DNA of 64,000 nucleotides. It comes from a virus. Lineage: Duplodnaviria; Caudoviricetes. Each line of letters opens with the position of its first letter. The first letter of the stretch is position 1. Positions 6,550-61,880 of this stretch are shown here, piece after piece. The stretch covers positions 4,197 through 68,196 of the IMG/VR virus record IMGVR_UViG_3300046779_000717; one strand, 5' to 3'. The position numbers and the translations under genes were made by a program. The notes beneath the pieces are model-generated. The model did no database searches, had not been told where the DNA came from, and saw only the letters and a program-made list of their open reading frames with translations.

Positions 6550-6810
6550 ATGTTAGAATCCAAACTGCAATCGAAGATGATCAAGCTTGCAGAGGAGTCT
6601 GGCTGGTACGTCCTAAAACTTTTGAGTACAAACAAACCAGGGATACCCGATCTGTATATGTATCGGGCGGGAAGAACTGTCTTTGTTGAGGTCAAGAGAG
6701 AGGGCGGAAAGGCCAGGCCATTGCAAGAATATCGAATGAAAGAGCTGAGAGAGATAGGTGTCGAGGCATTAGTCTGCGACTCAATTGAAAAATTTAAAGA
6801 ACTACTATGA
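6550..6810 (+). CDS. VRR-NUC domain nuclease
   Basis: ESKLQSKMI...GIPDL...FVEVKREGGKARPLQ (PD-(D/E)xK). Confidence 0.9.
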   Translation: MLESKLQSKMIKLAEESGWYVLKLLSTNKPGIPDLYMYRAGRTVFVEVKREGGKARPLQEYRMKELREIGVEALVCDSIEKFKELL

Positions 6811-9066: not shown

Positions 9067-9076
9067 TGAATGAATA

Positions 9077-9115
9077 ATCCGCCATTATTGTCTATTTTGT
9101 ACAGTAATGGCGGGT
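9077..9115. terminator. Long hairpin after nrdJ, probable terminator
   Basis: ATCCGCCATTATTGT (9077-9091) pairs with ACAGTAATGGCGGGT (9101-9115), 15 bp including G-U pairs. Confidence 0.65.
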
Positions 9116-9197
9116 TTATCATGCAAATTCCACGTATTAAATATCCAAAATTGTTAAAAAATCACAAAAATGGCAGATAAGGATTTTGCGAAATGTA

Positions 9198-9227
9198 TTG
9201 CTTTTTGATACTTTTCGCATATATTTG
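9198..9227 (+). promoter_or_regulatory. Bacteroidota promoter driving the ncRNA cluster
   Basis: TTG (9198-9200), 19 nt spacer, TATATTTG (9220-9227). Confidence 0.7.
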
Positions 9228-9240
9228 CTTTAAAATAATT

Positions 9241-9350
9241 AGCCCAAAGTACACGGGATCGAAAACAGGAGGGCATACCGTAAGATCTGCTCACTCGTCC
9301 TCTGAATCGTTAGTCAGCATAGTTATCGGGTTCTATGGTATGCGATAAGC
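9241..9350 (+). ncRNA. Candidate structured RNA with loop-loop pseudoknot
   Basis: Stems GAGGGC/GTCCTC (9269-74/9297-302) and TTATCG/CGATAA (9323-28/9343-48); loops ATACCGTA (9275-82) and TATGGTAT (9334-41) are complementary. Confidence 0.5.
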
Positions 9351-9365
9351 GAAAAACTCGGCAAT

Positions 9366-9475
9366 AGTCAGGTGGCGGAATGGTAGACGCTACAAGTAAG
9401 TCCAACGATGACCTAAGGCATGATGACCGAAGGAGTTACTGGTTGGTATTACAGGTTCGAATCCTGTCCTGACTA
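9366..9475 (+). ncRNA. tRNA-like element 1 (anticodon arm replaced by extended stem-loop)
   Basis: Acceptor AGTCAGG/CCTGACT, D arm TGGCGGAATGGTAGACGC, T arm ACAGG-TTCGAAT-CCTGT; 60-nt central domain with no 7-nt anticodon loop. Confidence 0.8.
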
Positions 9476-9480
9476 CAAAA

Positions 9481-9552
9481 GCATTGATAGCCTTCCACAC
9501 TGAGTGGCGGACTTTTAAGGAAGTGCCTTAATGACGGCTCGGAAAGACGAGC
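9481..9552 (+). ncRNA. Candidate structured spacer RNA between tRNA-like elements
   Basis: Nested GCATT/AGTGC, CCTT/AAGG and CCAC/GTGG stems, then GCTCG-GAAAGA-CGAGC hairpin preceded by TAATGACG. Confidence 0.4.
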
Positions 9553-9557
9553 AACAT

Positions 9558-9666
9558 AGCCAAGTGGCGAAAGGTTGGGGACGTCCCCGACGTGGTAGTC
9601 GCTATCCTGTAATAAGGAGATGCTGAGTTAAAAACGGCGTTCAAGGTTCGAGTCCTTGCTTGGCTA
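9558..9666 (+). tRNA. Atypical class II (Tyr-like) tRNA with hairpin inserted in the D loop
   Basis: Acceptor AGCCAAG/CTTGGCT, T arm CAAGG-TTCGAGT-CCTTG, long variable arm ATGCTG/CGGCGT; CTGTAA in a misregistered anticodon stem; GTTGGGG-ACGT-CCCCGAC inserted in the D loop. Confidence 0.7.
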
Positions 9667-9746
9667 CAAACTATATTTTGGCAAAATTGCTAACAATTGC
9701 CAGTTAATTGTGAAAAACTGGTTTACAACTATGCCGTGTTGTGAAT

Positions 9747-9754
9747 TAACTTTG
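9747..9754 (+). promoter_or_regulatory. Bacteroidota -7 promoter box
   Basis: TAACTTTG upstream of ATG 9818. Confidence 0.45.
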
Positions 9755-9817
9755 CTTTGTTCATATCTCGTTTGGGTGACATTGGGGTTCGGAACATCCG
9801 GCCCCATTGTTTTTAAG

Positions 9818-10003
9818 ATGAAGTCAGAGCATAAAAATATAGCAAACTACGTCAACCACGCCATGAGCGAGTTGAACGAACTGTCGACAGAGCTTTATGA
9901 AGCTATGATGGACCAGGAGAATGCGGAAGTGAAAAAGATTGTCGACAAAATGATTCCTATCCTTAAGGATATACAATCGACCCACACAAATGAAATCATA
10001 TAA
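9818..10003 (+). CDS. Small helical hypothetical protein
   Basis: MKSEHKNIANYVNHAMSEL..., 61 aa; the upstream extension in the ORF track overlaps the tRNA-like element. Confidence 0.7.
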   Translation: MKSEHKNIANYVNHAMSELNELSTELYEAMMDQENAEVKKIVDKMIPILKDIQSTHTNEII

Positions 10004-22016: not shown

Positions 22017-22766
22017 TTATGGGTAACTTTTGAATACTTGTGAAGAAACCGCAAATAATTCAACAGCAGTTGAACTTGTGTTTTCAAGAAGCACTTGCAT
22101 GTAATATCCACGAGCCCCGTAAGACTCTGCCACAGCATTTTTGACGAACATAATAAAGTTTCCAGTCAATGGAACTGTACCTCCAACAACCATAACAATA
22201 GTCACAGATGTTGATGTCACGTTTGTAACCTGTCCAGACACCAACGCTGTACCACTGGGCACAGTGTAAATCAAGTCGCCAATACTTACTGTTGATCCAA
22301 TGTCGAATGAAAAATCTATTCTGTATGTAGCAGCAGCAACGAGGGTAACGGCAGATGCGTTTCCAATACCTTGAGTAGACAAAGCTTTGTAGTCAACTGT
22401 GTCTGGGTTACGTCTGATGTATGTAAAGTAGTCTCCCTCCTTTAGCTCAAAGTAAGAAGCCTCCATAACGCCAGAGTTCAAGTCTGTAGTGATGGTTGTC
22501 TTCCATGGAGAATCGGTCTCACACGCGAGCGTCTTAAACATTTTTGACTCGCTAGGCGCATCGTTAAATACGATAGTCACTGTAGACGGATCTGAAGCAG
22601 CTCCATACCAACTATTGCGTGTAGCATTTGTGTTGTGCTTCCATAACTCACCACTTTTGAACGTGTACAAAAAATTGTTCATATTGGTCATCCATTCTGG
22701 ATAGTAAGAGTGGAACGATGTCCACCCTTCTAGCATTGGAGAGTATGTAAGAGTATAGTTAGCCAT
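22017..22766 (-). CDS. Tail protein (resembles the C-terminal part of tail stabilisation/nozzle proteins)
   Basis: TLTYS..LEGWTSFHSYYPEWM..MNNFLYTFKSGELWKHN and TIVFNDAPSESKMFKTL. Confidence 0.6.
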   Translation of the reverse strand: MANYTLTYSPMLEGWTSFHSYYPEWMTNMNNFLYTFKSGELWKHNTNATRNSWYGAASDPSTVTIVFNDAPSESKMFKTLACETDSPWKTTITTDLNSGVMEASYFELKEGDYFTYIRRNPDTVDYKALSTQGIGNASAVTLVAAATYRIDFSFDIGSTVSIGDLIYTVPSGTALVSGQVTNVTSTSVTIVMVVGGTVPLTGNFIMFVKNAVAESYGARGYYMQVLLENTSSTAVELFAVSSQVFKSYP

Positions 22767-57877: not shown

Positions 57878-57908
57878 TTTGTAGGTATCAACATAAGTAG
57901 TATATTTG
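57878..57908 (+). promoter_or_regulatory. Consensus Bacteroidota early promoter
   Basis: TTTG (57878-81), 19 nt spacer, TATATTTG (57901-08), preceded by an AT-rich UP-like tract. Confidence 0.85.
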
Positions 57909-57931
57909 TGTACCCTTAAGAATTAAACGAC

Positions 57932-58207
57932 ATGAACACACAAATCAACCTAACCGAACTAGAGCAGACCTTGCTCACCGAATTCATTGGAAGTCTTTAT
58001 GCCGAGGAAGGCTATTCAGACGTCGACGCAAAAGACCTTGCACAGGGAACAGGTATCGACATTAAGATAGTACGAGGCGCACTAGGCAGTCTAGTTAAGA
58101 AAGGCATTGTATCAATTGAGACTATGCAAAATTGGGGCGAGAAGGCCTATGAAATTATCTATCTGAACGAGGATTATTGGTACATGCATCCAAGATGGGG
58201 CAAATAG
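57932..58207 (+). CDS. Winged-helix DNA-binding protein, first early gene
   Basis: LTELEQTLL...DAKDLAQGTGIDIKIVRGALGSLVKKGIV. Confidence 0.7.
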   Translation: MNTQINLTELEQTLLTEFIGSLYAEEGYSDVDAKDLAQGTGIDIKIVRGALGSLVKKGIVSIETMQNWGEKAYEIIYLNEDYWYMHPRWGK

Positions 58208-58260
58208 GTTAACTGACGAGTCCTTAATGGACGAAACGGGCAGAGATGCCCGTCTTAACC
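58207..58260 (+). ncRNA. Type I hammerhead ribozyme
   Basis: GGTTAA-CTGACGA-GTCC(TTAAT)GGAC-GAAA-CGGGCA(GAGA)TGCCCG-TC-TTAACC: complete catalytic core and three perfect stems; GUC cleavage after 58254. Confidence 0.95.
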
Positions 58261-58274
58261 AAACCAACAAAGAC

Positions 58275-58457
58275 ATGGAATTCTTATTAATCAACGACGG
58301 CAGAATTGTAAAGGCCAAAAACAAGGTAGAAGCGCTAAGGTCATCGGGCTATGATTTTATCTATTGGGAAGGCAACACACCATATGGTGTAGAATATCCC
58401 GCTAGCAAGCGTAAGGCATACGCCATCAGAAAGCCCAAGAATGCAATTTGGAAATAA
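58275..58457 (+). CDS. Hypothetical protein
   Basis: Start moved to ATG 58275; the tracked start 58227 lies inside the ribozyme. Confidence 0.7.
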   Translation: MEFLLINDGRIVKAKNKVEALRSSGYDFIYWEGNTPYGVEYPASKRKAYAIRKPKNAIWK

Positions 58458-58469
58458 ACACACAAAGAC

Positions 58470-58742
58470 ATGAAAATCTATTCAGTAAAACTCAGCGAAG
58501 ACGGAACTGCTCGTCAAGTTTACACCAACGTCAAGGCGTTGTACAATGGAATCGAGACCTACGGGTACACCCCGAAATCAATACACATTGATGCCAACAA
58601 CGACATGCCTTACAACTACAACAATTTGCTCAAGGCAATCAAGGACTCGTCAAACGATGGTCAGTACTACGCAATCGCATTCATCAACTGCGACAACGGA
58701 AGTGATATAACCATAGTAGAACACGAAATCATATCAAAATAA
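58470..58742 (+). CDS. Hypothetical protein
   Basis: 90 aa early gene. Confidence 0.7.
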   Translation: MKIYSVKLSEDGTARQVYTNVKALYNGIETYGYTPKSIHIDANNDMPYNYNNLLKAIKDSSNDGQYYAIAFINCDNGSDITIVEHEIISK

Positions 58743-58792
58743 ATTTGGTAGACTCAGAAATAATAACTAAAATCGTGAACAATTTAATCAAC

Positions 58793-59191
58793 ATGAATAC
58801 ACTTATGCAAACCCCAAGAAATTTAGTTGCCTTGTTGCGCAACGCGGAGACAAACAACGAAGGTTTCTCCTACAACATCAACAACGGAGACGTAAACCCC
58901 GACAAAGGATTTATGGTATCGCGTATCGGTCACGAAGAGATTGTGCCACAAGGCGCAGACCTAATGGCCTATGGCAAACACTACTTCTATCGCCATGCCG
59001 AGGCATTGGCCGAGAGCAACGCCTACATGGGATGTTGGTACAACGGCAGTCAGTTTGTATTTGACGTATCAGACAACGTACAAACCAAAGAGGTAGCCAT
59101 CGCATTGGGCGAACTGAACAACCAAGAGGCGATTTGGGATTGCGCATCGGGCTCTGAGTACCGATTGATGAGAGAGGGGGACGCGATATGA
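58793..59191 (+). CDS. Conserved-looking early protein (possible SAM-lyase-like fold)
   Basis: EGFS...GFMVS...YMGCW...FDVSD...ALGELNNQEAIWD; start ATG 58793. Confidence 0.6.
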   Translation: MNTLMQTPRNLVALLRNAETNNEGFSYNINNGDVNPDKGFMVSRIGHEEIVPQGADLMAYGKHYFYRHAEALAESNAYMGCWYNGSQFVFDVSDNVQTKEVAIALGELNNQEAIWDCASGSEYRLMREGDAI

Positions 59192-59520
59192 AATACAATT
59201 TAGTAATCAGCAGAACTTACGCCACCGAGATTGAGGTGACCGCAGACAACATGGCAGAGGCATGGGATTGGGTAAACCAAAACAGCGACGCCATCTACGA
59301 AGCAGAGATGGAGCAGTGCAACGTCATCAGCGAGGAGACGGACATGAGAGAGATAGGGCCATCATTGAACGAGGCTGAGGAACTTCTCGACCTTGCTCAG
59401 CACATCGGCCGATATCTTGACAAGTACATTCACGTCTCAAGTTATGTCCCAAAGGAGATGAGAGACATCTTGTCACAAATGGCATCACACGCACAAGAAT
59501 ACTACAACGACGAGGATTAA
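59188..59520 (+). CDS. Hypothetical acidic protein
   Basis: YNLVISRTYATEIEVTADNMAEAWD N-terminal motif. Confidence 0.7.
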   Translation: MKYNLVISRTYATEIEVTADNMAEAWDWVNQNSDAIYEAEMEQCNVISEETDMREIGPSLNEAEELLDLAQHIGRYLDKYIHVSSYVPKEMRDILSQMASHAQEYYNDED

Positions 59521-59527
59521 ATCCTCA

Positions 59528-59572
59528 TCCCAAGCCAAAGGAATGCAGTCAGTTCGAGTCTGACCTTGGGAG
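59528..59572 (+). ncRNA. tRNA-like minihelix 1 (acceptor stem and T arm only)
   Basis: TCCCAAG/CTTGGGA, GTCAG-TTCGAGT-CTGAC, 13-nt linker; intergenic. Confidence 0.8.
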
Positions 59573-59591
59573 CAAATTAATAACACAACAT

Positions 59592-59861
59592 ATGAACATT
59601 CGAACAATTTACGCAAGACAAAAGTCAGCAGGTGTTGACTACATGCAACGACTCATCAACAACGGATCGGTTTGGCAGATGGAAGGGTCAATGGGACGCG
59701 AGGCAATGCGCCTACTAGAGGCAGGCATCTGCATGCTACCAAAGAAATCATTCACCGACCACTACGGCAATCGTGTTCCATCACGTGACGAACTGAAAGG
59801 TTGCACAAAGGGAACATACGCCAATGCGGTTAGGTATTGGTCTAATGGATGGGAGGACTAA
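59592..59861 (+). CDS. Hypothetical protein
   Basis: 89 aa; QRLINNGSVWQMEGSMGREAMRLLEAGICML. Confidence 0.7.
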   Translation: MNIRTIYARQKSAGVDYMQRLINNGSVWQMEGSMGREAMRLLEAGICMLPKKSFTDHYGNRVPSRDELKGCTKGTYANAVRYWSNGWED

Positions 59862-59863
59862 TC

Positions 59864-60052
59864 ATGACATTCGACGAAAGAGTAGACATACTGAAAAGAA
59901 TTGGTTTCACAGAGACCCGTGTTGGGATGACAAATGGAACATATGCATTCCTATGGTATCAGATAGACACGGGTGCGATGAGCGACAAAGAATTTAAAGA
60001 ATATTACAATTCAATGACAAATAAATTAGGTTATCAACAAGATAGTAACTAA
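59864..60052 (+). CDS. Hypothetical protein
   Basis: 62 aa from ATG 59864. Confidence 0.6.
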   Translation: MTFDERVDILKRIGFTETRVGMTNGTYAFLWYQIDTGAMSDKEFKEYYNSMTNKLGYQQDSN

Positions 60053-60080
60053 TATTGCATACCCAAACAAACAAAAAGAT

Positions 60081-60650
60081 ATGGCTAACCATTGTTACAA
60101 TTCAGCAACTATCGAGGGCTCAGAGCAGATGCTCAACCTATTCGAGCAACGCCTCAATGAGGCAACTAAAAGACACCAAGGTTTCTTGTTCCATGCATCA
60201 TTTTACGAAGTGCTTGGTATGGAATCGACTGACGAAGAAACATGGGCAGACTCATATTTCGACCTTGGGTCTAGGTGGTTCTACCCGTTGTGGGAGAGAC
60301 AATCGCCAACCACTGGCGTATTGAGCGGTGACTCTGCGTGGTCGCCAGTATCTGAGTTCTTTCGCAAACTATCTGAGGCATACGAACTGAAGATTGAGTC
60401 AACATACGAAGAATGCGGAGAAAACTTCGGTGGATGGTATGACTGCGTCAACGGAGAGGTAACACGTGACGTAACAACATCATACTTCGCATTCAGATAC
60501 ATGGACGAGGGCGACTACTACATTCAGAACCTAATCGAGGATGCAGAGGATGGATATTGGGAGAGCGCAGATGAACTAGACGAGGACTTGCTCGAGGTGA
60601 TGAGTGACGAGGACAAACAAAGTTTAATTAACGCAATAAACAAGATATGA
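60081..60650 (+). CDS. DUF1281/YubB ferredoxin-like family protein
   Basis: MANHCYNSATIEG...LGSRW...DSAWSPV...YEECGENFGG. Confidence 0.7.
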   Translation: MANHCYNSATIEGSEQMLNLFEQRLNEATKRHQGFLFHASFYEVLGMESTDEETWADSYFDLGSRWFYPLWERQSPTTGVLSGDSAWSPVSEFFRKLSEAYELKIESTYEECGENFGGWYDCVNGEVTRDVTTSYFAFRYMDEGDYYIQNLIEDAEDGYWESADELDEDLLEVMSDEDKQSLINAINKI

Positions 60651-61048
60651 AATACACAACACAAGACAACTTCACGTGGTACACAATTGAACCACACGTG
60701 GCTAGAATCCTACACGACGCAGACTACTGCGTGTATGAACTGCATGACGACGACTCAGAGTCATTGTGTGTAGATGGTCACGAGTTCAGTAACGCTAGCG
60801 GTGTGCGCTACGCCATCGAGACTCCGTCAAACGACGTTATCCATTGCTTGTGCGGAGAGAATGCAATTGCTCCATTCATTGATGGTAATCTTGAGAACTG
60901 CTTTGACGCCATCTTTAGTTATCGCACTGCTGACATCACGTTCTTTGGTCACAACGACGAACTGACAAGTGTGTTGAAGAAATTGTCAAAGTGTGGTGCT
61001 ACCATGTCAATTTCGCCAGCAGAGTTCTTGAGTATAATTGAATTGTAA
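60647..61048 (+). CDS. Hypothetical protein
   Basis: 133 aa, ATGA-coupled. Confidence 0.65.
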   Translation: MKYTTQDNFTWYTIEPHVARILHDADYCVYELHDDDSESLCVDGHEFSNASGVRYAIETPSNDVIHCLCGENAIAPFIDGNLENCFDAIFSYRTADITFFGHNDELTSVLKKLSKCGATMSISPAEFLSIIEL

Positions 61049-61257
61049 TCAACTAGACGTGGCTTGACCGCCACCCTAGTTCAAGCACCGCTATCAGCCC
61101 GATAGCACAAGCCAAGGTGGATCACTTGGGGTGACAAAGTTCTTTGACATATTGGACGATTGTTTGGTGGTCGAATGACCGACCAACTATGTACGCACAC
61201 TTCACTGAGTCTCAGTGATTGAATTGGTATGGAACAGCCAAGGTGATGCGGTGAACA
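61049..61257 (+). ncRNA. Hairpin-dense candidate ncRNA segment
   Basis: Successive hairpins GCTTGA/TCAAGC, GCTATC/GATAGC, TTGGTGGTC/GACCGACCAA, TCACTGAG/CTCAGTGA; no credible + strand ORF. Confidence 0.5.
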
Positions 61258-61304
61258 GCACGGGATATGAACGGATATATGGGGTTCAAATCCCCACCCG
61301 TGCG
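61258..61304 (+). ncRNA. tRNA-like minihelix 2
   Basis: GCACGGG/CCCGTGC, TGGGG-TTCAAAT-CCCCA, 15-nt linker ATATGAACGGATATA. Confidence 0.8.
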
Positions 61305-61308
61305 CAAA

Positions 61309-61382
61309 GGTCAGCCAGCACTGACCCTCAACGATAGGTTGAAAAGTCATGATATTGAAAACGGGTGACTGCTGGGTCACCC
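61309..61382 (+). ncRNA. Kissing-loop RNA
   Basis: GGTCAG-CCAGCA-CTGACC and GGGTGAC-TGCTGG-GTCACCC; the two loops are exact complements. Confidence 0.7.
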
Positions 61383-61387
61383 TATAT

Positions 61388-61509
61388 AGCAGAGTGGCGA
61401 CATGGTTGTCGCATGAGAGATGATGGACTAATTGCCATCCCTGTTGCATAGCAGAAAGTAGCTTAAATAAAGCGCTCATTTGCAGGTTCGAGTCCTGCCT
61501 CTGCTACCA
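61388..61509 (+). ncRNA. tRNA-like element with branched 57-nt insert replacing the anticodon loop, CCA encoded
   Basis: AGCAGAG/CTCTGCT+ACCA, D arm GCGAC-ATGGTT-GTCGC, ATGAG/CTCAT stem, T arm GCAGG-TTCGAGT-CCTGC. Confidence 0.8.
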
Positions 61510-61511
61510 CT

Positions 61512-61880
61512 ATGAGATTGACAAATGGTAAGTTCTACGATGGGGACAAGGAAGTCCCTCTAGAGTTCGGAAATCGGGAGCAGATTGAACTGCTCAAGAC
61601 GGCTATCGCCGAGGCCGAGAAAGGCCACAAAGTTAATGTCAACACAAACGAGAAGGTAACTTATAAGTTATCAATGGATTGGAAGTGTTGCAAATGTTTC
61701 AAGTTAAACGTGGATGACGATTGGAATGAGTACGAAGACTGGGAGCCAGACTTTGACGACATCCAGTGCTTCATTGAAGACAACATAGAATGCTCACATT
61801 GTGGGCAGGAACACAAACTAGTAGTAGACAAGACAAATAGATTTAGCCCACAATATTATGTTCAAGCAGAAACTGACTAA
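61512..61880 (+). CDS. Zinc-ribbon-containing protein
   Basis: CCKC...CSHC. Confidence 0.7.
   Translation: MRLTNGKFYDGDKEVPLEFGNREQIELLKTAIAEAEKGHKVNVNTNEKVTYKLSMDWKCCKCFKLNVDDDWNEYEDWEPDFDDIQCFIEDNIECSHCGQEHKLVVDKTNRFSPQYYVQAETD

Follow-up and report, generated by a model that had tools for sequence, protein, structure and literature searches.

What are a ribozyme and a set of tRNA-shaped RNAs doing between the early genes of a bacteriophage? The question is raised by a stretch of small open reading frames (ORFs) of unknown function, close to the right end of an IMG/VR virus record (68,196 bp; complete according to CheckV); we analysed positions 4197-68196 of this record, and refer to these 64 kb as the window. 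We take the stretch to be a module of early genes from a podovirus that is crAss-related and infects freshwater Flavobacteriia. All of its features described below lie on the plus strand. A preliminary description had read it as one early polycistron cut at RNA-encoded sites, and the elements that it named (a hammerhead at 58207, tRNA-like minihelices at 59528 and 61258, and a longer tRNA-like element at 61388) are all confirmed by our folds and pattern scans. Our favoured interpretation, to which we give a probability of roughly 55%, is that the early RNA carries built-in processing modules, consisting of the hammerhead and tRNA-maturation sites, that would give its cistrons insulated starts.

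A type I hammerhead ribozyme (58207-58260) takes up the gap that separates ORFs 1 and 2, and was recognised by its fold and by a pattern scan in which it is the sole match on either strand of the window. Stems I (GGTTAA/TTAACC), II (GUCC/GGAC) and III (CGGGCA/UGCCCG) surround an intact catalytic core (CUGACGA...GAAA), and with the cleavage triplet GUC the predicted cut falls after C58254, which would leave an A/C-rich leader of 20 nucleotides (nt; 58255-58274) before the ATG of ORF 2 at 58275. The minimum free energy and centroid structures of 58200-58265 are both three-way junctions (z = -4.34), with stems II and III looped and stem I open. A search of the whole window against Rfam at gathering thresholds returned no match; the hammerhead scores 17.1 against 34 for Hammerhead_1 (RF00163) and 23.7 against 56.3 for RAGATH-1-hammerhead (RF03152). 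The gathering score is a cut-off applied to the score and makes no structural demand, and divergent hammerheads that fall below it are on record (bioRxiv 10.64898/2026.10.21.760802). From its core and predicted fold we regard the element in the window as a genuine hammerhead that should cut itself, and consider self-cleavage very likely. An unannotated type I hammerhead is also present between gp051 and gp050 of Cellulophaga phage phi19:3 (KC821608, our locus L148, 6004-6052), with stem I AGAUUAA, an AUC triplet and a 31-nt leader to gp050; phi19:3 is a cultured marine phage and a possible laboratory model for a related hammerhead.

The window hammerhead belongs to a subfamily with a fixed GGUUAA in stem I, a 13-nt stem-loop II and an A at position -1. 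To find its members we scanned viral contigs for a pattern in which stem I (5' strand), the core and CGAAA were the only fixed parts, and obtained matches at 120 or more viral loci; the counts that follow refer to the matches listed, 144 of them unique. Stem II has at least 4 base pairs (bp) in 140 of the 144; essentially all also complete stem III, the triplet (UH) and stem I on its 3' side, and 38 tetraloop-bearing copies are complete when judged by eye. Stem II is represented by 70 different hairpins and stem III by at least 89, and the variable positions of stem II show all Watson-Crick pair types, as expected of a covarying helix; every position of the catalytic core is kept across at least 144 copies. 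Positions that the pattern left free are conserved too, with A at -1 in 153 of 154 and U-N-A-N-U in loop II, which suggests a tertiary contact.

The subfamily is just as regular in its placement, every copy found lying tightly between the stop of one ORF and the start codon of the next. The predicted cut site lies 15-29 nt from the next ORF start (mode 20-24) in 101 of 123 listed copies, against a flat distribution in a random-position control, and the upstream stop falls inside the ribozyme or within 9 nt of it in 115 of 143. This stop may be a TAA in stem I (44 copies), a TGA in the core (19) or a TAG sharing the first G (19), the last being the arrangement in the window, where the final G of the TAG of ORF 1 is the first G of stem I. 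Stop placement and start spacing together indicate that the ribozyme is a compact module joining stop, cut and leader. Searching by protein and by motif yielded seven related early operons (loci L097/L002, L003/L126, L127, L128, L131, L132 and L144/L145), six of which have one to three subfamily hammerheads between their first early genes, and these homologues show compensatory stem changes. In related strains represented by metagenome contigs (X1 and X3) the genes at 57936-58206 and 58264-58835 have been swapped while the ribozyme and leader are kept, cassette exchange falling exactly at the hammerhead borders, and in one related strain a hammerhead lies directly upstream of ORF 1. Gene replacement between such borders implies that hammerheads mark cassette junctions.

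The hammerhead half of this arrangement is not new, since a 2011 study had already described such ribozymes in phage polycistrons and assayed them in vitro. The passages of Perreault et al. (2011; PMC3088659) on which we draw report multiple type I hammerheads flanking genes in phages and prophages, often several per operon, propose that they process long phage transcripts into gene-length mRNAs, and document cleavage by tandem phage hammerheads of polycistronic fragments of ~2 kb in vitro. The window resembles those arrays in having a type I hammerhead in a phage intergenic region; it differs in the subfamily traits given above and in its sub-threshold Rfam scores, and neither the start spacing of ~20 nt nor the stop codons in stem I or core appear in those passages. 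Accordingly, the processing scheme that the preliminary description did not recognise from any described phage was partly on record, and what is left as undescribed is its tRNA-mimic half; an incomplete literature search found nothing relevant on phage minihelices or phage tRNA punctuation.

This second half consists of tRNA-like structures in the gaps further downstream. Minihelix A (59528-59572; fold and pattern search), with a 7-bp acceptor, a 13-nt linker, a 5-bp T stem, a UUCGAGU loop and a discriminator G, lies in the 71-nt gap past ORF 5, 7 nt after the stop and 19 nt before the next ATG. Minihelix C (61258-61304; fold and a mascRNA-like Rfam match) sits inside a structured non-coding RNA (ncRNA) module past ORF 9, and its linker is a 15-nt hairpin in the window, 6 nt long in L128 and absent from L131. 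The two share the 7-bp acceptor, the 5-bp T stem, a UUCRANY loop and the G53-C61 pair; the anticodon arm is absent from both, and neither scores on the Rfam tRNA model. The elements at 59528, 61258 and 61388 all possess the features that define a t-element, namely a 12-bp acceptor/T stack, a UUCRANY T loop, G53-C61 and a single-stranded discriminator. All tRNA-like elements of the stretch are intergenic and co-oriented with the ORFs, where a single transcript would cover them. A 12-bp coaxial helix with a canonical T loop is the minimal substrate of bacterial RNase P, and minihelices are treated as such substrates in the literature (PMC6614837).

Are these shapes more than accidents of folding? 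Strict minihelices number 12 in 1.18 Mb of hammerhead-bearing phage loci and none in five shuffles, and an unrelated phage (L119) has at least four of them in successive intergenic gaps beside a hammerhead. A minihelix follows the ORF 5 homologue in all seven relatives. At this slot the window, L003 and L132 have version A, in whose T stem an A-U pair is replaced by G-C, a compensatory change, in the L003 and L132 orthologues, and L097 (10799-10847), L128 (4729-4775), L131 (4728-4776) and L127 (minus strand) have a version B that is unrelated to version A in sequence; the acceptor of minihelix C likewise shows compensatory changes among relatives. Our strongest argument that the minihelix shape is selected is that two unrelated sequences share it at one syntenic slot. 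We considered that minihelices A and C might be host tRNA copies or attP-like half-tRNAs and rejected this for lack of genome matches: a search of 185,579 species genomes gave no match to the 3' half of minihelix A, one of 301 Bacteroidota gave none with three or fewer mismatches, and minihelix C has none in 61. In another unrelated phage (L045, 1952-2029 and 2439-2527), two acceptor-stem elements are both followed by CCA and then by a three-codon mini-ORF (ATG CAA TAA and ATG CGA TAA), ahead of a conserved leader.

The longest element is a tRNA-like gene of 122 nt with an encoded ACCA end (61388-61509), which keeps acceptor, D arm and T arm and has a 57-nt domain of three hairpins in place of the anticodon arm. 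The segment 61388-61506 scores 33.1 bits on the Rfam tRNA model (RF00005; gathering score 29) with a 57-nt insert at the anticodon-loop position; it has no 5-bp anticodon stem with a 7-nt loop carrying U33, an anticodon and a purine at 37. Because a normal anticodon arm is missing we call these elements tRNA-like and not tRNAs. ARAGORN by default finds no tRNA or tmRNA in the window, and its intron mode alone detects the 61388 element, as forced intron solutions; since neither default ARAGORN nor Rfam at its gathering thresholds reports them, the elements would be missed by routine annotation. The element and the following ORF 10 (61512-61880; 122 aa), whose ATG comes 2 nt past the CCA, form a strain-specific insert absent from the relatives, metagenome contigs skipping from 61383 to 61872.

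The T arm and acceptor 3' strand of the 61388 element (24 nt) match an initiator-type tRNA-Met(CAU) exactly, in nine cellular records and one viral record (L133-L141, L149); the tRNA genes come from Chloroherpeton, Cytophagales, Kapabacteria, Bacteroidetes metagenome-assembled genomes (MAGs) and a viral contig. ARAGORN typed the tRNA at seven of the nine cellular matches and reports none at the other two (a Bacteroidales MAG and Treponema berlinense), and the viral tRNA was read by eye. Position 1 of the element is an A paired with U72, not a mismatched C. The match may be chance, given the ~ten million tRNAs searched and the constrained T loop.

Ribozyme and tRNA-like elements can also be compared by their distances to the next start codon. 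Leader lengths agree at 23 nt from promoter box to ATG, 20 nt for the hammerhead and 19 nt for minihelix A, and elements without CCA generally cluster 16-24 nt upstream of the next start. All three elements that encode ACCA (61388, and version A of L003 and of L132) have an ATG 1-2 nt downstream, a rule drawn from n = 3 elements of which only two are independent cases. An ATG 1-2 nt past a 12-bp coaxial helix would hardly be usable if the RNA stayed whole; this is our main indirect argument for processing. Near-leaderless starts are already used elsewhere by this phage, to judge from the spacing of its -7 boxes.

From these sequences, folds, patterns of conservation and covariation, and spacing rules, we infer the following events on one transcript over the whole stretch. 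The hammerhead would cut itself after C58254, the RNA of gene 1 retaining its stop codon and ending in a structured 3' segment that carries a cyclic phosphate, and the RNA of gene 2 gaining a 5'-hydroxyl and an unstructured 20-nt leader. The minihelices and the ACCA-ended element would be taken by host enzymes, RNase P on the 5' side and RNase Z or an equivalent on the 3' side, a step that we find plausible from the predicted structures. Excision would free small tRNA-like or ncRNA products and leave the next cistron with a leader of ~20 nt after CCA-less elements, and with an almost leaderless start after CCA elements. The outcome would be a constant, insulated translation start for rapidly exchanged early cassettes, and this in hosts of a phylum whose translation does not depend on Shine-Dalgarno pairing. 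A bolder version of this proposal holds that, in phages whose hosts are Shine-Dalgarno-independent, RNA processing replaces promoters in setting translation starts, hammerheads and CCA-less elements giving leaders of ~20 nt and CCA mimics leaders of 1-2 nt, that one mimic copies the top half of initiator tRNA-Met, and that the freed anticodon-less mimics act as small RNAs against host enzymes directed at tRNA; we think it unlikely that all of this is so.

Several observations, here and in the following paragraphs, weigh against processing and bring its alternatives into view. The hammerhead falls below the Rfam threshold, and its stem I is open in the predicted fold and has only 6 bp. No slot among eight relatives shows a hammerhead exchanged for a minihelix. 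In version B the 5' strand of the acceptor (AACCACG) overlaps the TAA of the upstream ORF, and a canonical RNase P cut would therefore strip the message of its stop codon, a situation reminiscent of mitochondrial mRNAs with their incomplete stops. This overlap is more easily accommodated if there is no 5' cut at all and the elements are uncut stable folds, which would insulate cistrons, block exonucleases, pause polymerase or ribosome, or tune translational coupling. Consistent with this, all of them are strong local folds (z -1.1 to -4.3) standing exactly between stop and start. A mere hairpin, however, would not need the catalytic core that at least 144 hammerheads keep, nor the T-loop consensus and G53-C61 pair of the minihelices, which are specific to tRNA-recognising enzymes, and the start codons 1-2 nt past a 12-bp helix are hardly usable on uncut RNA. 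We rate this alternative as very improbable.

A further difficulty is posed by signs that some of these RNAs may matter in themselves. The 463-nt gap past ORF 9 holds not only minihelix C and the 61388 element but a structured module (61049-61383; alignment and RNAalifold; z = -3.95), comprising two Y-shaped elements (~61085-61134 and 61194-61250) that both bear a hairpin loop G-N-GGA-N-CA, an almost invariant block (61137-61190), the minihelix, and hairpins at 61309-61326, 61328-61343 and 61363-61382, the last being its end hairpin. Of the 60 pairs predicted by RNAalifold, 13 show double compensatory changes. The segment 61137-61345 is almost invariant across six phages while the flanking proteins are 45-65% identical, a conservation far in excess of what a cut site needs. 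The preliminary description had seen in the gap a structured cluster with two tRNA mimics serving as cut sites, a view that we amend for 61049-61383: by its covariation this is a conserved ncRNA module, not a bare cut site. Two further details of the module may be recorded. The six-base loops of 61309-61326 (CCAGCA) and 61363-61382 (UGCUGG) are complementary, a property that L127 and L128 retain and L144 retains in part, and could form a loop-loop contact; and the block GTTCTTTGACATATTGG (61137-61170), invariant even in the most distant relative (L132), matches neither Bacteroidota promoter spacing nor an obvious helix and is maybe a binding site for a protein or polymerase.

The genome holds five tRNA mimics in all, none with a usable anticodon arm. 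Two are long elements (9366-9475 and 9558-9666), with class II-type D arms, canonical T arms and no normal anticodon arm. They lie in a protein-free interval (9067-9820) that has a terminator-like hairpin after the ribonucleotide reductase gene and a -7 box TATATTTG at 9220-9227, and that looks like a dedicated ncRNA locus; because these two resemble dedicated ncRNA genes, it may be the RNAs and not the cuts that matter. A guide-RNA array of the VIPR type (GGY/NN) was also considered for the window and rejected, no run of at least four GGYNN units being found on either strand.

These data are the basis of a reading in which the tRNA-shaped RNAs are trans-acting products, regulators or, for instance, decoys or sponges that would engage host enzymes or nucleases of host defence recognising the acceptor/T-arm half of tRNAs; excision would only make them, and the hammerhead would be a separate and ordinary feature of phages. 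It draws on the missing anticodon arms of all five mimics, on the setting of the pair at 9366 and 9558 behind a terminator and -7 box, on the near-invariance of 61137-61345, and on the exact initiator-tRNA match of the 61388 element. That match could be fortuitous; only 2 of 41 sampled Bacteroidota come within two mismatches of it, and minihelix A (3' half) and minihelix C lack host counterparts in the genomes searched. Moreover, versions A and B are unrelated and occupy the same slot, which means that shape and not identity is selected, and the regular spacing to the next ATG points to a role in cis. On balance we regard trans-action as the whole explanation as unlikely.

Whether a single transcript spans the region depends on its promoters and terminators. 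A Bacteroidota-type promoter, TTTG-N19-TATATTTG, was found by pattern search at 57878-57908, its box ending 23 nt upstream of the ATG at 57932, for a predicted leader of ~19-20 nt. The motif that the preliminary description had noted here is present, as it said; taken alone it is weak, because the full pattern has 3 matches in 64 kb against 1.7 expected by chance. The further statement that no terminator or second promoter separates the elements is literally true of the window, where we found neither a plus-strand terminator nor another full-consensus promoter between them. Two features nonetheless could explain some transcript ends. A strict -7 box, TAAATTTG (58740-58747), forms a candidate internal promoter before ORF 4, within an intergenic block conserved among relatives; it is without the -33 TTTG, and may be the start site of a second transcript. 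In relatives the end hairpin of the ncRNA module (61363-61382) is followed by TTTTGT or TTTAATT and is terminator-like, and in the window this T-run has been displaced by the insert of the 61388 element and ORF 10. Because of the -7 box and the terminator-like hairpin, the single polycistron of the preliminary description is not established.

These same two features could be taken further, to a region divided by internal promoters and terminators into separate transcripts, in which the tRNA-like pieces are decaying relics of phage tRNAs with no present role, and it is in line with this that the 61388 element and ORF 10 are an insertion absent from related strains. Compensatory changes, recurrence in unrelated phages and the absence of matches in shuffled sequence argue against decay, however; the 14-40 nt between end hairpin and next ORF in the relatives leave no room for a promoter, and the window has no other full-consensus promoter there. 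This explanation therefore seems to us a poor one. Elsewhere in the window TAnnTTTG boxes end 4 nt before start codons at 22766, 41847, 51765, 56748, 57309 and 57486, and 7 nt before those at 6550, 21995, 30230, 39913 and 40975; such spacing implies leaderless mRNAs, or mRNAs with a 3-nt leader, for many middle and late genes.

The early proteins themselves say little of function. ORF 1 (57932-58207; 91 aa) belongs to a PHROG of unknown function, as do the other small early proteins that have any assignment, apart from a DUF1281_C-like domain in ORF 8 (60081-60650). Between these lie ORF 2 (58275-58457), ORF 3 (58470-58742; homologues in L002/L097), ORF 4 (58793-59191), ORF 5 (59188-59520), ORF 6 (59592-59861; 91-93% identical in the closest relatives and 61% in L132) and ORF 7 (59864-60052), and ORF 9 (60647-61048) precedes the ncRNA module. 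The record's ends overlap, and plus-strand genes run on across them. Other proteins of the window include portal, large terminase, ribonucleotide reductase, primase/helicase, GroEL, ThyX and the C-terminal domain of the crAss 'muzzle' protein; the terminase is 70% identical to that of an uncultured freshwater phage and 42% to those of Flavobacterium and Cellulophaga podoviruses. The muzzle domain is encoded by a minus-strand ORF (22017-22766) and, with ORFs of 2767, 2340 and 1951 aa, points to a virion of crAss-related type, perhaps one that packages an RNA polymerase; such a polymerase, if present, would matter for the identity of the enzyme that transcribes the early genes. Neither RNA ligase, RNase nor CCA-adding enzyme was found among the 20 larger ORFs scanned, many ORFs lying outside that scan. 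Searching 50,697 phage records with the region (blastn) gave no match, the one metatranscriptome dataset checked does not contain the stretch, and sequencing runs yielded three metagenome contigs, all from related strains.

The arrangement has analogues in several known systems. Phage T7 early mRNA is cut between genes at RNase III sites, which are long irregular hairpins. The present locus resembles it as a phage early polycistron with RNA-encoded structures between genes, and differs in that no such hairpins were seen and the proposed cutters are a ribozyme and tRNA-maturation enzymes. Transcripts joining tRNAs and mRNAs are known from E. coli (thrU-tyrU-glyT-thrT-tufB) and from the T4 tRNA cluster with its stable RNAs C and D, and the excision of co-transcribed tRNAs by RNase P separates their neighbours; those transcripts carry decoding tRNAs, whereas the elements here are without an anticodon arm. 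In the tRNA punctuation model of mitochondria, reportedly proposed by Ojala in 1981, and in plant mitochondrial t-elements, tRNA-shaped structures likewise stand between coding regions. According to the part of Forner et al. (2007; PMC1920247) that we draw on, t-elements are tRNA shapes in polycistronic RNAs at which RNase P and RNase Z create mRNA ends. They are organellar, with ends mapped by experiment, while the present elements belong to a bacterial DNA phage and have predicted ends, and they have been reduced to acceptor and T arm and combined with a ribozyme, features that set them apart from t-elements as those are described there. Finally, mascRNA of MALAT1 and its MEN-beta counterpart (RF01684) are tRNA-like folds in long transcripts from which RNase P and RNase Z release a small RNA. 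This family is the best Rfam match of 61258-61303 (21.3 bits, E = 0.58), far below its gathering score of 42.5, and as mascRNA is a vertebrate nuclear RNA the likeness to minihelix C is architectural only.

If the cuts occur, bacterial viruses use organelle-style tRNA punctuation together with a ribozyme to produce single-gene messages with standard leaders. This would explain why hammerheads are so common in phages, a question since 2011; it would explain how quickly swapped early or anti-host cassettes meet a constant expression context, and how internal cistrons are translated in hosts without Shine-Dalgarno pairing. Genetic work on Bacteroidota would also gain compact insulator parts of natural origin. 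As tRNA mimics without an anticodon, the elements constitute an unlisted class of RNA.

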